Shown piece by piece: positions 3,981 to 8,385 of a DNA stretch of 36,534 nucleotides. The position numbers and the translations under genes were made by a program. The notes beneath the pieces were generated by a model. It saw only the letters and a program-made list of their open reading frames with translations, had not been told where the DNA came from and did no database searches. Within the stretch, counting starts at the first letter, position 1; each line of letters starts with the position of its first letter. Source of the DNA: a virus (taxonomy: Duplodnaviria; Heunggongvirae; Uroviricota; Caudoviricetes); the IMG/VR virus record IMGVR_UViG_3300028833_002293, positions 1 to 36,534 of that record; one strand, 5' to 3'.

Positions 3981-4430
3981 TTAATAGGGATAATCAATTT
4001 CTTTAAAGTAATCTATAATCTTTTTAGAGGTCTGTGCAGCATACTGATTGCGAGGGTCAAACAACCCCTTTTCACAATTTTCAGCAAGCAACTTGATGTA
4101 CTCCAAGCACACCTTAAACATTTCGTTTTGTAGGTATCTGTGCTCACGACACATCACTTCTGCTACGTGCTTCTTGCTATGCAACTTACCATTGACAAAG
4201 TTGCCGAAAAAACGTGCAAACACATCGTCCATGTTCTCACCACATTTTGGGCAAAGGTCATACTTGAAACGTTCATATACCTTTTTCATGAGAAATTCTT
4301 TTTCGTCTGAATCTACATGGGTATCATCCATTTCCAAGTATTTACCATCAATCAAACGTGCAATCTGCTCATTTGACAACTCATAGGATGCGTATTCCCT
4401 ACCATCAATATTAAACTTTCTTTCTGCCAT
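3981..4430 (-). CDS. hypothetical protein, ~149 aa
   Basis: ORF track; ATG 4430 follows promoter 4457-4488. Confidence 0.8.
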   Translation of the reverse strand: MAERKFNIDGREYASYELSNEQIARLIDGKYLEMDDTHVDSDEKEFLMKKVYERFKYDLCPKCGENMDDVFARFFGNFVNGKLHSKKHVAEVMCREHRYLQNEMFKVCLEYIKLLAENCEKGLFDPRNQYAAQTSKKIIDYFKEIDYPY

Positions 4431-4456
4431 AATCACTTCATTTTTTAAATCTGCTG

Positions 4457-4488
4457 CAAAGGTACGAAATTATAATGAATCTACCAAA
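4457..4488 (-). promoter_or_regulatory. sigmaA-type promoter (left member of divergent pair)
   Basis: TTTG-N20-TACCTTTG. Confidence 0.85.
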
Positions 4489-4593
4489 AAAATTCTTATA
4501 AAAATACTGGCTATTAAGGTTTTTTAACACTTAGGGTCTTTTATATATTATAATAAGGTGAAAAGAAATAATTTCAAAAAAATCATTAAAACG

Positions 4594-4625
4594 TTTGGCT
4601 ATCTCGATTTTTTTTCTTACCTTTG
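4594..4625 (+). promoter_or_regulatory. sigmaA-type promoter (right member of divergent pair)
   Basis: TTTG(4594-4597)-N20-TACCTTTG(4618-4625). Confidence 0.85.
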
Positions 4626-4654
4626 CACCACGAAAACGATAAAACAAAAAGAAA

Positions 4655-4885
4655 ATGGATAAAAACTTGAATGTAAGAGTAATCGGAGTGCCAAAAAGTG
4701 CGTCCTACGACAAAAAGTGGATGGACACAATCTCTGACAAAGAAATGAGTGAACTTGCTCTTTCTGACGGAGATACGGCAATCTTTGAAAGTATGGAAGA
4801 GTTCAGTGAGGTTGTTTTGAACAATCCGAGCGCAAAAGAACAACTACTTAGTAATTGGTGGTATTTCTTAACTGACTTGGCATGA
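4655..4885 (+). CDS. hypothetical acidic protein, 76 aa
   Basis: ORF track; first gene after plus-strand promoter. Confidence 0.8.
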   Translation: MDKNLNVRVIGVPKSASYDKKWMDTISDKEMSELALSDGDTAIFESMEEFSEVVLNNPSAKEQLLSNWWYFLTDLA

Positions 4886-5226
4886 GAAAAGATTATCTAA
4901 AAGTAGCCAAGGCTCTCTATAAGCCTACACCAAAGGTTGAGGGTCTTGTGCTGAAGTTATGTGACTTGTTTGATAAGCCACTACCAAATGGTGTGACTAT
5001 AACATCCTTAACATTCAAGGAGGGTTCTCTAAAAGTTGGTGGTTTATCTGTCAAGGAACTCATCAGAGGTGGACAGCATTGCGGTATAGAGGTACATTGG
5101 TATCCAGATTTCACGAAGTCCACTAAGACTGACCCATTCTGTAGTGCTTTCATATTGCGCTACAACTCTCTCGAAAAACTCTACCGTGAGGTGGAAAAGG
5201 TACTCTCAGCAATGAGAGTTGCGTAA
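4882..5226 (+). CDS. hypothetical protein, 114 aa
   Basis: ATGA overlap with upstream stop. Confidence 0.8.
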   Translation: MRKDYLKVAKALYKPTPKVEGLVLKLCDLFDKPLPNGVTITSLTFKEGSLKVGGLSVKELIRGGQHCGIEVHWYPDFTKSTKTDPFCSAFILRYNSLEKLYREVEKVLSAMRVA

Positions 5227-5331
5227 ACAACATTTAAACTTAGTATTAATCTTAACAGTACTGACCCCATTGTTGTTGAAACAGTGGGGATGTACGTCAT
5301 TTCACTGACGTTCAATGGCAACAACTGCCGT

Positions 5332-5347
5332 TGTACTTTTTTAAGTC
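5332..5347 (+). repeat. 16-bp motif copy 1 (TGTACTTTTTTAAGTC)
   Basis: One mismatch to consensus TGTACTTATTTAAGTC. Confidence 0.9.
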
Positions 5348-5353
5348 TTTAAT

Positions 5354-5539
5354 ATGGCAAATAGAATTAATTATCACATCGGATTTTATACGAGAGACGG
5401 AATCTTTAGTGTATTAGGTAATAAGAAACGCTTTCGTAACTTTTTCCCTACAAGGGAAATGGCTGAAGAAAAACGCAAAGAACTTCAAAGAAACTACAAA
5501 CATAGACTAGAAATACAACCATTCCATTATAGTTTCTAA
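5354..5539 (+). CDS. hypothetical protein, 61 aa (between motif copies 1 and 2)
   Basis: ORF track; FFPTREMAEE motif. Confidence 0.75.
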   Translation: MANRINYHIGFYTRDGIFSVLGNKKRFRNFFPTREMAEEKRKELQRNYKHRLEIQPFHYSF

Positions 5540-5551
5540 ATAGACCCACGT

Positions 5552-5567
5552 TGTACTTATTTAAGTC
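5552..5567 (+). repeat. 16-bp motif copy 2
   Basis: TGTACTTATTTAAGTC exact. Confidence 0.95.
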
Positions 5568-5593
5568 TATTTAGAGATTTTTCCATACAATAA

Positions 5594-5625
5594 TTTGTTT
5601 ATTACAAATATTTTTCATATCTTTG
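5594..5625 (+). promoter_or_regulatory. sigmaA-type promoter
   Basis: TTTG-N20-TATCTTTG. Confidence 0.8.
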
Positions 5626-5676
5626 CACTGTATATGCGTATCCAATTGGATACAAACAGTTAATTAATTTTAATAT

Positions 5677-5892
5677 ATGGCAAAATATTATATTAATACA
5701 AATGATGGGCGTAAATATATTAAGGAAATTGATTACGCCCAAGGAAAACTCACATTCACAAACGATGTAAATGAGGCATACAGAGGTAGGGATGGATTCT
5801 ACGCCAATGCAACTAGGGATATGATACGTAGAGGATTCAGCGATGAGTATCCAGAGATAGAGAATCTACAGTGCGAAGCTCCATACTATTAA
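5677..5892 (+). CDS. hypothetical protein, 71 aa (paralogue of 5947-6177)
   Basis: KYIKEIDYAQGKLTFTNDVNEA vs EYLKTLDTAEGKIEFTKEPSEA. Confidence 0.8.
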   Translation: MAKYYINTNDGRKYIKEIDYAQGKLTFTNDVNEAYRGRDGFYANATRDMIRRGFSDEYPEIENLQCEAPYY

Positions 5893-5903
5893 ACACCCCT
5901 CGC

Positions 5904-5919
5904 TGTACTTATTTAAGTC
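5904..5919 (+). repeat. 16-bp motif copy 3
   Basis: TGTACTTATTTAAGTC exact. Confidence 0.95.
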
Positions 5920-5946
5920 TAATTATTAATAAACAGTATACTAAAT

Positions 5947-6177
5947 ATGGGAGGTTATCTATTACAGAATTCAAAAAAAGAGTATCTGAAGACTCTAGAT
6001 ACTGCGGAAGGTAAAATTGAATTTACCAAAGAACCAAGTGAAGCGAGAAACTACTCTGGCCGTCCAGGAGGTGGACAATGGGATGCTGACAATGAAAAAC
6101 AATACCTAGACTTCCACTTCGGAGAAGAGTATGGAGATAGAGTAAAATCATTACATTGTGTCTACCGTGAATGGTAG
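5947..6177 (+). CDS. hypothetical protein, 76 aa (paralogue of 5677-5892)
   Basis: ORF track; shared Y-x-K-x-L-D-x-x-x-GK-x-x-FT-x4-EA pattern. Confidence 0.8.
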   Translation: MGGYLLQNSKKEYLKTLDTAEGKIEFTKEPSEARNYSGRPGGGQWDADNEKQYLDFHFGEEYGDRVKSLHCVYREW

Positions 6178-6232
6178 TCACAACCCCCTACGTGTAGACC
6201 GCTTCAGCGGAATTCAGCGGCAACAGCCAAGC

Positions 6233-6248
6233 TGTACTTATTTAAGTC
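6233..6248 (+). repeat. 16-bp motif copy 4
   Basis: TGTACTTATTTAAGTC exact. Confidence 0.95.
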
Positions 6249-6255
6249 CATATAT

Positions 6256-6468
6256 ATGGGAAAAGCAATCTTAGAGTTTACTCTCAATGGGAGGAAACAT
6301 ACATACTTCAGAAGGAAAGACCTCTATGGGAAACCATTGACCACTACCAATAAGAATAGTGCTCGACATGTGAAAGAGTCTGACATCAAAGGTACAATAG
6401 CACTTCTGATAAAAGAATATGGTAAGAGTAATATAACAGACATGAATGTAATTAAGGATGAAGCATAA
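6256..6468 (+). CDS. hypothetical protein, 70 aa
   Basis: ORF track; GKPLTTTNKNSA weakly echoes neighbouring GKLTFTNDVNEA. Confidence 0.75.
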   Translation: MGKAILEFTLNGRKHTYFRRKDLYGKPLTTTNKNSARHVKESDIKGTIALLIKEYGKSNITDMNVIKDEA

Positions 6469-6484
6469 AGCCTCATCCTTTTTT
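6454..6484 (+). terminator. intrinsic terminator ending the plus-strand island
   Basis: AAGGATGAAGC/ATAAA/GCCTCATCCTT followed by TTTT. Confidence 0.7.
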
Positions 6485-6496
6485 AGTATATAAAAA

Positions 6497-6530
6497 AAGT
6501 ATCTACACGTTTCACAACGTATGGATACTT
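6497..6530 (-). terminator. GUGA(GNRA)-capped intrinsic terminator
   Basis: GTATCCATACGTT/GTGA/AACGTGTAGATAC followed by TTTTTTT on minus strand. Confidence 0.7.
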
Positions 6531-6681
6531 CCGCTTAAGCTAACCTTAAATCTAATACCATGAAAAACACATTTTTTGTCTCTGAAATTTAAGCTTTATG
6601 TCCAAAAAAACTAAACTTAAAACAAAAATAAAAATATATATTTCTACTAACCTTTAATATAAATATATCCTACCCCCTATT

Positions 6682-6697
6682 TGTACTTATTTAAGTC
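6682..6697 (+). repeat. 16-bp motif copy 5
   Basis: TGTACTTATTTAAGTC exact; no plus-strand ORF follows. Confidence 0.95.
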
Positions 6698-6706
6698 CAA
6701 TTTTTT

Positions 6707-7198
6707 TTAGCCAAAAAACGTCCCATCATTCTCTGGCCATCTATTCTGCGCCTCAAACACAAACTTGGGTTGCTGTATCTTAGGCACTAACCTCCTAGCA
6801 TCATGCTCACGTAAAGAATCAAGCAAGTTCTTATAAGTTGAACGTATATTAAGATTCTTAGTACCAGTGTAACATGTGATGTATACTGTACCTAAGTTCT
6901 TTATAATCTCTTTCTGATAAAACTCCATGTAAATACCATTCGTTTTCAAGAAATTATCAAATGCGTCCAACTGATAGAATGTACGTGGAACTTTACTTAG
7001 GTCAGACCACTCATAGAAATAAATCCTTACAGAGTCATCAGCATACTGGCTAGGAATCCTATGAACATTGTCCAATACACCACCGCCATATCTGTTACGA
7101 TAGTAATATGGTGAATGATTATAATCAGTCTTAGGACGCTTCCTCTCATTAATTAGAGATTGTCTAAACAAATCCCTTAAATCCTTACTTCTATTCAT
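6707..7198 (-). CDS. hypothetical protein, 163 aa
   Basis: ORF track; shares DLF N-terminus and IYFY...F..L..F domain with 7207-7926. Confidence 0.85.
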   Translation of the reverse strand: MNRSKDLRDLFRQSLINERKRPKTDYNHSPYYYRNRYGGGVLDNVHRIPSQYADDSVRIYFYEWSDLSKVPRTFYQLDAFDNFLKTNGIYMEFYQKEIIKNLGTVYITCYTGTKNLNIRSTYKNLLDSLREHDARRLVPKIQQPKFVFEAQNRWPENDGTFFG

Positions 7199-7206
7199 AG
7201 TCTATA

Positions 7207-7926
7207 TTAATCGCCTAATTCAGATTCTTCACAAGCATCATAAAACATTTCACCATAAGTGTGTTCACTCATAATCTCAAGTAATCCTATCTTCTCTGAC
7301 TCAGGATTCAAACAACAGTGACTCTCATATCTCCATGAAATATCAGCAGCTACCTCTGGGTCAACCCAATAGCCCATGTTTTCACAATAATCACTAAATT
7401 CTTTAAGTGAGTTAAATTCCAATTTATCATCCTTATAATGATAGTCTGGATAAAACCAAATCTCTTTCGACTCTGAATCATAGTCCTCAGTGGTGAAATC
7501 ATACTCATTTGGGTCAGTCTCATCCCCACTGTAAGGAACACTGATGTCAAATGTCTTGGATTTACTACCTTTCTTATTATGCTTGTGCTTACCCTTCTTG
7601 CCAAACTGCTCTTCACGCTCTTCTTGCCAAAAAGCATCGTATACAGTATTTTTATCTTTACCTTTCTTACCCTTTTTGGGCTTCATGTAAATAATATTGC
7701 TAGGAGGGAATACAACATCACCATCATCATCAAGGTCATCATCCCAACCAGGAAACATTTGGTCCCAATACTCTGCCATATCAGAATAGTCATCAAACAG
7801 ATAAGCTTCACGACCACCCATGCTTCTCTTTGGCTCTTTAGCTTTGCGAGACAAATATTCATGGAATAAATCAACCAAGTTAGGTCTAACCTTGTTCGGT
7901 ATCGTTATGTTAATCTTTTTCGACAT
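7207..7926 (-). CDS. hypothetical protein with alternating acidic and Lys-rich tracts, ~239 aa
   Basis: ATG 7926 after promoter 7955-7986. Confidence 0.85.
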   Translation of the reverse strand: MSKKINITIPNKVRPNLVDLFHEYLSRKAKEPKRSMGGREAYLFDDYSDMAEYWDQMFPGWDDDLDDDGDVVFPPSNIIYMKPKKGKKGKDKNTVYDAFWQEEREEQFGKKGKHKHNKKGSKSKTFDISVPYSGDETDPNEYDFTTEDYDSESKEIWFYPDYHYKDDKLEFNSLKEFSDYCENMGYWVDPEVAADISWRYESHCCLNPESEKIGLLEIMSEHTYGEMFYDACEESELGD

Positions 7927-7954
7927 ATTATTATGCACACTTTTTACTATAATG

Positions 7955-7986
7955 CAAATATATGAATTTTTTTTGAAATAACCAAA
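7955..7986 (-). promoter_or_regulatory. sigmaA-type promoter
   Basis: TTTG-N20-TATATTTG. Confidence 0.8.
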
Positions 7987-8385
7987 TTTTTTAAGTAAAA
8001 TTAACGCTGGAATAATTTTTGAAAATTTTTCTGGAAAATATAGACAACAGTTTTTTTCTTACATTTTTACTATTTTTTGTGCATGTTTTTATACATTAAC
8101 CTTGTAACTTACTTTATCTCAGTTCTTTAAAAATTTAAAAGAAAATTTTTATATAAATGCCTAATGAATACGCCTACTTATACACAATTTTTTCGTTAAT
8201 TTCAAGTAAAAAAAATCTCTCTGATTATCAGATAGTTACAAAGGTTTTTTAAAAATTTTTTTAGTAGTATTAAATTATTACCAGGCGTGCTGAGACATAT
8301 GGTTTATAGTTCAGCTATTTTCACTTCCCTTTCTTCGTCAAAATAGTTGTTATAGTCATGTTCTTTTATGGGGTAAAATTCATTT

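Follow-up and report, generated by a model that had tools for sequence, protein, structure and literature searches.

Positions 4594–6697 of the 36,534-nucleotide stretch analysed here (the window), which belongs to IMG/VR virus record IMGVR_UViG_3300028833_002293 (Caudoviricetes), hold a plus-strand island flanked on both sides by minus-strand genes, as an initial annotation made from the letters alone had described. Five same-strand copies of a 16-bp near-palindromic motif, which we refer to as the junction motif, divide the island into four small cassettes (Table 1). A scan with the pattern TGTACTTATTTAAGTC reproduced the copies reported in that annotation, four of them exact and one with a single mismatch: exactly five matches were found in the window at up to three mismatches, all on the plus strand and at intervals of 220/352/329/449 bp, against a chance expectation of 1.19, and none of 100 shuffles contained five or more. 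The statement that the window has no further copies was also borne out and extends, at up to two mismatches, to the entire 104,891-bp contig that holds the window. Comparison of related phage genomes showed that this conserved junction bounds cassettes and that the cassettes turn over there, by insertion, loss, replacement and, in one instance, inversion.

Table 1. Features of the cassette island and its borders, in window coordinates (ORF, open reading frame; sRNA, small RNA).
Feature	Position	Strand	Remarks
Bacteroidota host-type promoter opening the island	4594–4625	+	−33 TTTG 4594–4597, 20-nt spacer, −7 TAccTTTG 4618–4625
Head gene f9, 76 aa	4655–4885	+	Overlaps f10 by ATGA
Head gene f10, 114 aa	4882–5226	+	Ends the head-gene block 4655–5226
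Conserved hairpin after the second gene, CCCCATTGTT...AACAGTGGGG	5265–5289	+	Common to all relatives; ends just before the first junction
Truncated junction start TGTAC	5291–5295	+	Runs directly into the motif in relatives
36-bp two-hairpin insert	5296–5331	+	ACGTCA/TGACGT, then GGCA-acaac-TGCC
Junction motif copy 1 (TGTACTTTTTTAAGTC, 1 mismatch)	5332–5347	+	ATG of cassette 1 6 nt downstream
Cassette 1: 61-aa ORF f73 (5354–5539) and ACCC (5544–5547)	5348–5551	+	
Junction motif copy 2, exact	5552–5567	+	From the pattern scan
Cassette 2: own host-type promoter and 71-aa ORF f0 (5677–5892)	5568–5903	+	
Junction motif copy 3, exact	5904–5919	+	Preceded by a 44-bp hairpin insert in L034, L046 and rumen run X24
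Cassette 3: 76-aa ORF f0 (5947–6177) and ACCCCC box	5920–6192	+	
40-bp hairpin insert TGTAGACC...TTCAGCGGCAACAGCCAAGC	6193–6232	+	TGTA repeats at both sides
Junction motif copy 4, exact	6233–6248	+	ATG 7 nt downstream
Cassette 4, first part: 70-aa ORF f16 (6256–6468) and intrinsic terminator (stem 6454–6480 and T run)	6249–6488	+	
Cassette 4, second part: FopS-family sRNA gene	6489–6591	−	sRNA 6489–6570, −7 box 6591–6583
Junction motif copy 5, exact, terminal	6682–6697	+	No plus-strand gene after it; 9 nt to the stop of the convergent minus-strand gene
Right-hand anchor genes f7 (163 aa) and f8 (243 aa)	6707–7938	−	Conserved, convergent on the island

A junction some 29 bp long, AACCC-N3-4-T-TGTACTTWWWTAAGTM-YAW, has the 16-mer as its invariant core. 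A logo built from 90 non-redundant contexts displayed CCC at positions −7 to −5 and T at −1, with Y-A-W following the motif; it contained no conserved element 20–35 nt upstream, and the downstream DNA was merely AT-rich. Variation within the motif was confined to three central W positions and to the last base (C or A). The dyad ACTTA-TT-TAAGT that had been pointed out earlier is present in the motif, and in the variant ending in A the core becomes an inverted repeat of 14 bp with a centre of 2 bp, TACTTAW-WTAAGTA. The motif has no fold of its own (0 to −2.4 kcal/mol for copies 2, 3 and 5, z about 0). An ACCC(C) run lies 3–4 nt 5′ of copies 2, 3 and 5 and is separated from copies 1 and 4 by hairpin inserts of 36 and 40 bp, respectively; this arrangement had been described correctly, and in relatives lacking the inserts ACCC directly abuts the motif. 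Upstream of many copies, an intrinsic terminator or another hairpin abuts the motif; copies 2, 3 and 5 of the window have ACCC(C) alone. The terminal copy 5 has counterparts in loci L034 and L046 and in genomes G001 and G004.

An exact scan of IMG/VR located the 16-mer in 54 stretches. Single matches inside coding sequence of unrelated contigs were at about chance level, and multi-copy loci alone were used in what follows. Same-strand arrays of 2–6 copies within 1–3 kb were found in at least 15 IMG/VR contigs of related rumen and gut phages. These relatives are 295–412-kb jumbo phages with Bacteroidota-type promoters, and the hosts of the clade are predicted to be of Bacteroidales type. CheckV-complete relatives were G001 (295 kb), G004 (412 kb) and G005 (312 kb), with G000 denoting the contig of the window. 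Each complete genome contains 6–8 copies of TGTACTTWWTTAAGTM, all forward, grouped in two clusters about 25 kb apart; a reversed-pattern control gave none. In 596 Gb of bacterial and archaeal genomes, the motif gave scattered single matches and no arrays. As these matches span all phyla and are about as frequent as chance would give for a 16-mer that has two degenerate positions, we rejected the idea that the motif is the site of a host factor. A blastn search of window positions 4000–8000 against INPHARED phages returned no match, and the literature searched (8.4 million papers) contained neither the motif nor its reverse complement, with chance 12-mers only.

Clustering of the ORFs at all loci revealed two syntenic islands. 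Island B, the one in the window, consists of f6 on the minus strand, f9 and f10 on the plus strand, a motif copy, the cassettes, a final motif copy and f7 and f8 on the minus strand. In island A, a minus-strand sigma factor gene and plus-strand f1 are followed by a motif copy and, further along, by plus-strand f14 and f5, a motif copy, a cassette, another motif copy and minus-strand f11. Among 108 non-redundant copies from multi-copy loci, 36 lie between a plus-strand stop and a plus-strand start, 30 between a plus-strand stop and the stop of a convergent minus-strand gene, and 17 between minus-strand genes, in antisense orientation. The motif abuts its downstream neighbour tightly (29 of 39 plus-strand starts at 6–31 nt; 32 of 51 minus-strand stops at −7 to +9 nt), unlike its upstream neighbour, to which distances are loose. 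Copies also lie 11–12 nt from transfer RNA (tRNA) genes on either strand, one of them 12 nt before a plus-strand tRNA gene. The initial annotation had argued against a simple promoter role from copy 5, which has no plus-strand gene behind it; the many terminal and antisense copies in the relatives argue in the same direction. In G005, an antisense motif follows each member of two tandem minus-strand paralogue pairs (L065 4647–5873 and L064 3872–4605, both on the minus strand). There, the motif is the variant ending in A followed by TG, the 30-nt spacer is almost wholly motif, and one of the pairs bears hexapeptide/left-handed beta-helix repeats.

A cassette, i.e. the DNA between two junctions, holds an ORF of 40–110 aa, a tRNA or an sRNA, often together with its own terminator hairpin and sometimes with its own host-type promoter. 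That the motif delimits exchangeable cassettes had been proposed from the window alone, together with an alignment of relatives to look for breakpoints. The alignments support the proposal: flanks are 85–99% identical between genomes, yet the same slot holds unrelated cassettes, and where relatives have near-identical flanks the segment between two copies can be unrelated, missing or turned round. The motif is where homology ends, and population variants from sheep rumen share the breakpoints. The outcome named beforehand as speaking against exchange, a gene order common to all relatives and free of breakpoints at the motif, is not what they show.

Slot 1 of island B illustrates the replacements. 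It holds the 61-aa ORF f73 in the window and in L034, an unrelated 46-aa ORF (f22) in L046, L023 and G001, and about 140 nt without an ORF in L009. The alignment is near-identical through ...CAGTGGGG(A/T)TGTAC, breaks, and resumes at AACCC-N3-4-T-TGTAC of the next copy, such that unrelated cassettes share AACCC-N3-4-T ahead of that copy. The slot in island A was found with at least seven unrelated inserts as well as in an empty form. In two pairwise comparisons of island A, L060 with L049 (flanks 86% and 90% identical) and L062 with L006 (96% and 85%), the middle is unrelated and the breaks fall at the motif edges. In whole-contig blastn comparisons, high-scoring segment pairs (HSPs) ended in the island near junctions at 5295, 5539/5551, 6656 and 6670, and away from them at 6150 and 6568; six of the eight HSP ends inside the island lie within 0–26 nt of a junction. 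Position 5295 is the end of the truncated TGTAC, which in relatives is the start of copy 1, and homology with G001 resumes at 6670. Contigs from sheep rumen contain, in place of 5291–5331, an extra 178-letter cassette at copy 1, the end of which matches the 46-aa cassette, and carry hairpin inserts variably at copies 3 and 4.

Orientation changes as well. In L050, the f16 cassette of the window (ORF and terminator) is inverted between two intact direct junctions (61% identity, E 8e-30). Minus-strand cassettes are also present in G004 and G005, and where G001 has a single site (plus-strand f1, motif, minus-strand f21), G004 has a minus-strand gene with a copy on either side. An origin of the inverted cassette by simple inversion at the palindromic core was rejected, since the predicted hybrid sites, TGT-core-ACA and G-core-C, were not seen. 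The two junctions around a cassette are identical in L006, L049, L047 and L058 and different in L060, L062, L066 and L017. Assembled contigs contained no convincing motif-to-motif joint that would indicate circles; a backward joint from 6236 to 5549 was discounted, as it has short sides and is explained by the hairpin insert. A separate change of orientation concerns a 518-aa UvrD-type helicase gene in island A, which close relatives carry in either orientation, with f2 and f14 as its neighbours in each case. This single-gene inversion includes the host-type promoter (L060 6925–8481, minus strand, versus L066 4881–6437, plus strand), and the same contrast sets L035 and L047 against L039, L049, L058 and L059.

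The junction itself can be interrupted. Eight distinct hairpin inserts of 36–44 bp, all located inside the junction and bordered by TGTA(C) repeats on both sides, follow one layout, in which ACCCC-N3 precedes the insert, the insert runs from TGTAGACC through a variable hairpin to TTCAATGGCAACA(A/G)C and N5-8, and TGTACTT follows. Inserts occur at copies 1 and 4 in the window, at copies 1, 3 and 4 in L034 and at copy 3 in L046; the 40-bp insert is missing at copy 4 in L009, L023, L046 and rumen run X24. A joint from rumen data, 6192 to 6233, skips exactly these 40 letters, with four letters shared. The second hairpin of the insert covaries (GGCAAC/GTTGCC, GGCA/TGCC, GGC/GCC, GGTAAC/GTTGCC), and the combination of a hairpin insert and the T-rich motif behind it gives a terminator-like score, as for hairpin 2 of the first insert (5313–5333) and for 6223–6235 plus ACTTATTTAA. 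We regard the insert as a putative optional terminator module or tiny mobile hairpin. A reading of TGGCAA-N5-TTGC as a sigma-54 element is no more than an idea; it fits three insert lineages, its spacing fails in the two copies of the window, and it coincides with the covarying hairpin. With repetitive extragenic palindromes and their associated tyrosine transposases (REP/RAYT), the insert alone shares a short extragenic hairpin, a GTAG start in most copies and sites that differ between genomes. It differs from them in that no Y1 transposase was found above cut-off, in that it always lies inside the junction after TGTA, and in that some copies start with GTAC or GTGC.

Regarding the remaining contents of the island, the head genes f9 and f10 are found in every relative and are not cassettes; neither has a Pfam or PHROG match. 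The host-type promoter pattern ahead of them recurs before the f9/f10 genes of L061 and L063, and a 96-nt stretch with the hairpin behind f10 folds at −34.7 kcal/mol (z −4.67). Each interval between motif copies contains one plus-strand ORF, as initially stated; the statement did not cover the minus-strand FopS-family sRNA gene that the fourth interval holds in addition. The ordinary promoter noted after copy 2 was confirmed and is of Bacteroidota type (5594–5625; TTTG 5594–5597, TAtcTTTG 5618–5625). No Pfam or PHROG family was found for the cassette ORFs. Those of cassettes 2 and 3 are paralogues (32% identity, E 2e-9) and belong to f0, the most frequent cassette cargo (65–111 aa), of which 1–3 tandem copies per island were seen in at least eight genomes. 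Members of f0 share the N-terminal pattern Y-[IL]-K-x-[IV]-D-x-x-x-G-x-[LIV]-x-F-T...EA and likewise lack a Pfam or PHROG family. The terminator behind f16 folds at −14 kcal/mol (z −3.79).

On the minus strand, the region 6489–6570 matches Rfam family RF04319 (FopS) with 58.5 bits over model positions 1–71 of 71 (gathering score 56). The gene comes with a host-type (Prevotella-type) −7 box, TAAATTTCA, and a terminator of its own that consists of a hairpin and a U run. In DNA run X1, word depth rises about 30-fold (to 3434) at 6520–6670, with many loose ends, and many contigs diverge at 6540–6574. The depth spike suggests that sequence of the sRNA region is shared with abundant host (Bacteroidales) genomes, and the last cassette therefore appears to carry a regulatory RNA of host origin. 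Pairing of the FopS-like sRNA with the motif was considered and dropped, the complementary patches being merely 4–5 nt long.

We then asked which proteins might act on the junction. In G000, G001, G004 and G005, no tyrosine recombinase (PF00589; control matched in 14 of 14 genomes), serine recombinase (PF00239; control matched in 12 genomes) or Cas1 (PF01867; control matched in 7 genomes) was found, and Y1 transposase (PF01797; control positive) gave no match above cut-off and one sub-threshold match in G004. The earlier remark that the window encodes no recombinase holds, for the tyrosine and serine families, across its contig and three complete relatives. RNA polymerase subunits (PF00623, PF00562) were not detected in searches with positive controls that very divergent polymerases would escape, and T7-type polymerase (PF00940) gave no match in a search whose control matched nowhere either. 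The complete genomes do encode 2–4 Sigma70_r2 genes each. A 236-aa sigma factor with regions 2 and 4 is encoded 1.5–2 kb from island A in G001, G003 and G004, and near motif copies in L008, L027, L033 and L054. The island-linked gene (L060 3153–3863, L062 2661–3374 and L066 2032–2748, all on the minus strand) always stands next to island A and is divergent from the gene for the conserved 205-aa f1. Beside it in G001 (L060 916–2829, minus strand) is a gene for a protein of 637 aa that combines three DUF723 repeats with a treble-clef zinc finger (DUF4379) and is a possible sequence-specific DNA-binding protein or nuclease.

Several other candidates were set aside. As potential binders, f1 (205 aa) and f10 (114 aa), modelled at predicted local distance difference test (pLDDT) scores of 86 and 85, had no Foldseek match at E <0.01; VIA Z scores of their models reached at most 5.7 (an Sm/WYL-like barrel) and 4.9, within noise, and f1 has no Pfam or PHROG family. 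A trans-acting RNA or ribozyme was rejected, as neither split complementary arms nor an Rfam ribozyme was found; reverse-complement 11-mers of the motif were absent from G000, G002 and 140 kb of G001. A Bacteroidota primary-sigma promoter was rejected, as the 16-mer and its flanks lack −33 TTTG and −7 TAnnTTTG at a spacing of about 19–21 nt; TATTTAAG within the motif matches four of the six specified positions of TAnnTTTG. A reading as a promoter for a sigma factor of the extracytoplasmic function type (AAC ... GTC) was not convincing, with a spacing of 19–20 nt, a weakly conserved −35-like part and an invariant "spacer". Ends of RNA-library contigs at 5904 and 6676/6677 were not accepted as transcript ends, as they coincide with points of strain divergence. 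Elsewhere in RNA-library contigs, sequencing-adapter letters stand directly at 4645 (X24 only), about 15 nt past the predicted start of the island promoter, and at about 6434–6439, the 3′ end of the f16 gene, in two separate studies (X4 and X24); these adapter-bearing ends may be defined RNA ends.

The explanation that we favour, with about even confidence, is that the junction resembles a promoter-early stem-loop (PeSL) element, that it is read by a sequence-specific protein, probably in a regulatory role, and that it doubles as a recombination patch at which cassettes turn over. A sequence-specific reader is inferred because the junction is letter-perfect outside its centre across lineages in which the flanking DNA is 65–90% identical, and because this extends to terminal copies with nothing but the 3′ end of a convergent gene in front of them. 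Our best guess is that the junction would be a transcription-regulatory site for a host RNA polymerase re-programmed by the phage, starting or gating expression of the gene that begins 6–30 nt downstream. This guess is based on the position of the motif just before gene starts and before a tRNA gene, on the sigma factors encoded, and on an architecture of hairpin plus signal that is PeSL-like. Since the genomes lack a gene for a recombinase of a known family, exchange would most likely proceed by general recombination of the phage on the short repeated junction, by analogy with the PeSL cassettes of T4-like phages.

A number of observations weigh against this explanation. Assembled RNA-library contigs (X3, X4 and X24) cover the island and its flanks alike. 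The motif fits neither the Bacteroidota −33/−7 consensus nor the bipartite layout of sigma-type promoters, and its best-conserved positions are those at which a sigma promoter would have free spacer. At the 30 of 108 copies that stand behind a plus-strand terminator and face a convergent stop, and at the 17 antisense copies between minus-strand genes, a promoter would make antisense RNA alone. In island A, transcription that starts at a host-type promoter further upstream can include the cassette ORF, which makes a promoter in the junction dispensable there. As regards recombination, 16–29 bp is short for homologous exchange, and a cassette inverted between intact direct junctions is not the product of simple recombination between junctions. 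In addition, mosaicism is genome-wide, with 49 collinear HSPs (70–98% identity) over 100 kb between G000 and G002, and between G000 and G001 HSP ends near host-type promoters are about threefold enriched (15 observed versus 4.8 expected). The junction therefore represents one kind of exchange point among others.

The main rival explanation is that the junction is a dedicated insertion or recombination target, at which an unrecognised phage or host enzyme inserts DNA into the near-palindrome and duplicates the site, any effect on expression being incidental. The enzyme would be a nuclease or recombinase of an undescribed family, acting in the manner of a long target-site duplication or of integration of the kind seen with CRISPR repeats or casposons. 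Such a target would account equally well for every context in which the motif stands. Arrays with N+1 junctions for N cassettes, the conservation of gene-less terminal copies in all lineages, copies between minus-strand genes, and both cassette orientations between intact direct copies are as expected of such a target. So are the 14-bp inverted repeat with its 2-bp centre, the site with one copy in G001 and, in G004, with a pair of copies enclosing a minus-strand gene, and the TGTA(C)-flanked mini-inserts of 36–44 bp, which sit inside the junction at different copies in different genomes. All copies in the complete genomes also lie on one strand; however, as there are merely two clusters per genome, this uniformity has little statistical weight. 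Further counter-evidence comes from the lack of tyrosine or serine recombinase, Cas1 and Y1 transposase in the three complete genomes and of convincing circular or junction-to-junction joints in the contigs, and from junction pairs that often differ around a cassette (e.g. AAT..C versus ATT..A in L060), which argues against recent duplication. On balance, we consider an insertion target possible, if on the unlikely side. Its most far-reaching form, a recombinase-independent insertion system in lytic jumbo phages, in which an enzyme opens the 16-mer, inserts segments in either orientation and duplicates the site, is slightly more doubtful still. If true, it would represent a new way to build gene-cassette arrays without an integrase, producing arrays of alternating sites and cassettes, integron-like or CRISPR-like, that hold accessory genes, tRNAs and sRNAs derived from hosts.

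Alternatively, the motif might be purely a phage-specific promoter or operator with no part in recombination, exchange taking place through the longer homology of the conserved flanking genes. Its closeness to downstream starts and the sigma factors encoded agree with this idea, as do the mosaicism found everywhere, with breakpoints enriched near host-type promoters, and the existence of both orders, motif before host promoter and host promoter before motif, as expected of independent signals. However, for unrelated cassettes to enter one slot, the joint has to fall at or within the junction and not in the flanking genes; terminal copies that follow a terminator lack a gene on which to act, and cassette orientation can flip. 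We therefore judge it unlikely that regulation alone accounts for the motif.

An intercistronic element acting at the RNA level, as a processing site or as the site of a translational regulator, with a palindromic core that works either way, appears highly improbable. The short stop–start spacers in plus-strand arrays (2–15 nt after the stop, 6–31 nt before the ATG), the reverse complement that precedes the ATG by 5–10 nt at minus-strand genes of G005 and L050, and co-transcription of the island A motif with upstream genes would fit such an element. Yet the motif does not fold, it both precedes and follows tRNA genes, and intrinsic terminators stand ahead of many copies, at which not much RNA would be made; searches for a complementary RNA, for ribozyme arms and for an Rfam family found none, and the many other tightly packed genes of the phage lack the motif. 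Finally, an origin as leftover of a tandem duplication of one small gene and its upstream spacer, which the paralogy of two neighbouring cassette ORFs and the recurrence of f0 behind the motif in several genomes might suggest, can practically be dismissed, as the motif borders on tRNAs, an sRNA and many ORFs of no common family, with unrelated cassettes between identical junctions, is identical where the paralogues have diverged to 32% identity, and is kept where flanking genes are merely 65–75% identical in DNA.

The junction provides a searchable marker for the plastic islands of uncultured Prevotella-type rumen and gut jumbo phages, i.e. for sites of uptake of counter-defence or host-takeover genes and even of a host-like FopS sRNA. 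Moreover, because the signal is conserved letter for letter across 295–412-kb phages yet is not a host-type promoter, it points to a phage-specific DNA-binding activity, such as a sigma factor, a regulator or a nuclease.

The initial annotation had named integron attC arrays and PeSLs as known analogies and had concluded that the sequence resembles neither. For the integron mechanism, which our data do not support, this assessment stands. There are common traits: both systems form direct arrays of site, cassette and site, with compact, mostly promoterless cassettes and a site 3′ of each ORF, and both have a terminal site after the last cassette and a conserved head upstream of the first site. 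However, the three complete genomes encode neither IntI nor another tyrosine recombinase. The junction unit is 16–29 bp long, nearly invariant and unstructured, whereas attC sites are 57–141 bp long, variable in sequence and recognised as a folded bottom strand. Cassettes of the present islands occur in both orientations, as for f16 inverted in L050, and some, such as cassette 2, have their own promoters. On these three features (IntI, attC structure and promoterless one-way cassettes), as read from the genomes, we reject membership in the integrons.

With respect to PeSLs, the architecture is close except for the host-consensus promoter. PeSL cassettes have been described in T4-type phages (RB49/phi1, T4/PST, KVP40/nt-1), where a stem-loop with G/C tracts and a conserved signal is accompanied by ORFans and no dedicated recombinase is involved (PMC2839356, PMC4122927). 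The elements described here are likewise short and intergenic, with a hairpin or intrinsic terminator abutting the signal in many copies, are concentrated in hyperplastic regions and flank small ORFans; insertion, deletion and replacement joints between relatives fall at the element, and no dedicated recombinase is encoded. They differ in that the conserved signal is a 16-bp near-palindrome that fails the consensus of the host primary sigma factor, host-type promoters being separate within the same cassettes. They also differ in having 6–8 copies per genome in two islands, with many copies lacking a hairpin and some lying antisense between genes, and in the occurrence of inverted cassettes and of cassettes with tRNA or sRNA genes. 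A further difference lies in the setting, a 300–400-kb jumbo phage of a Bacteroidota host. PeSLs are nevertheless the nearest known system, and the best reading by analogy is that the junction belongs to the PeSL kind, as a variant that would do without the host-consensus promoter.

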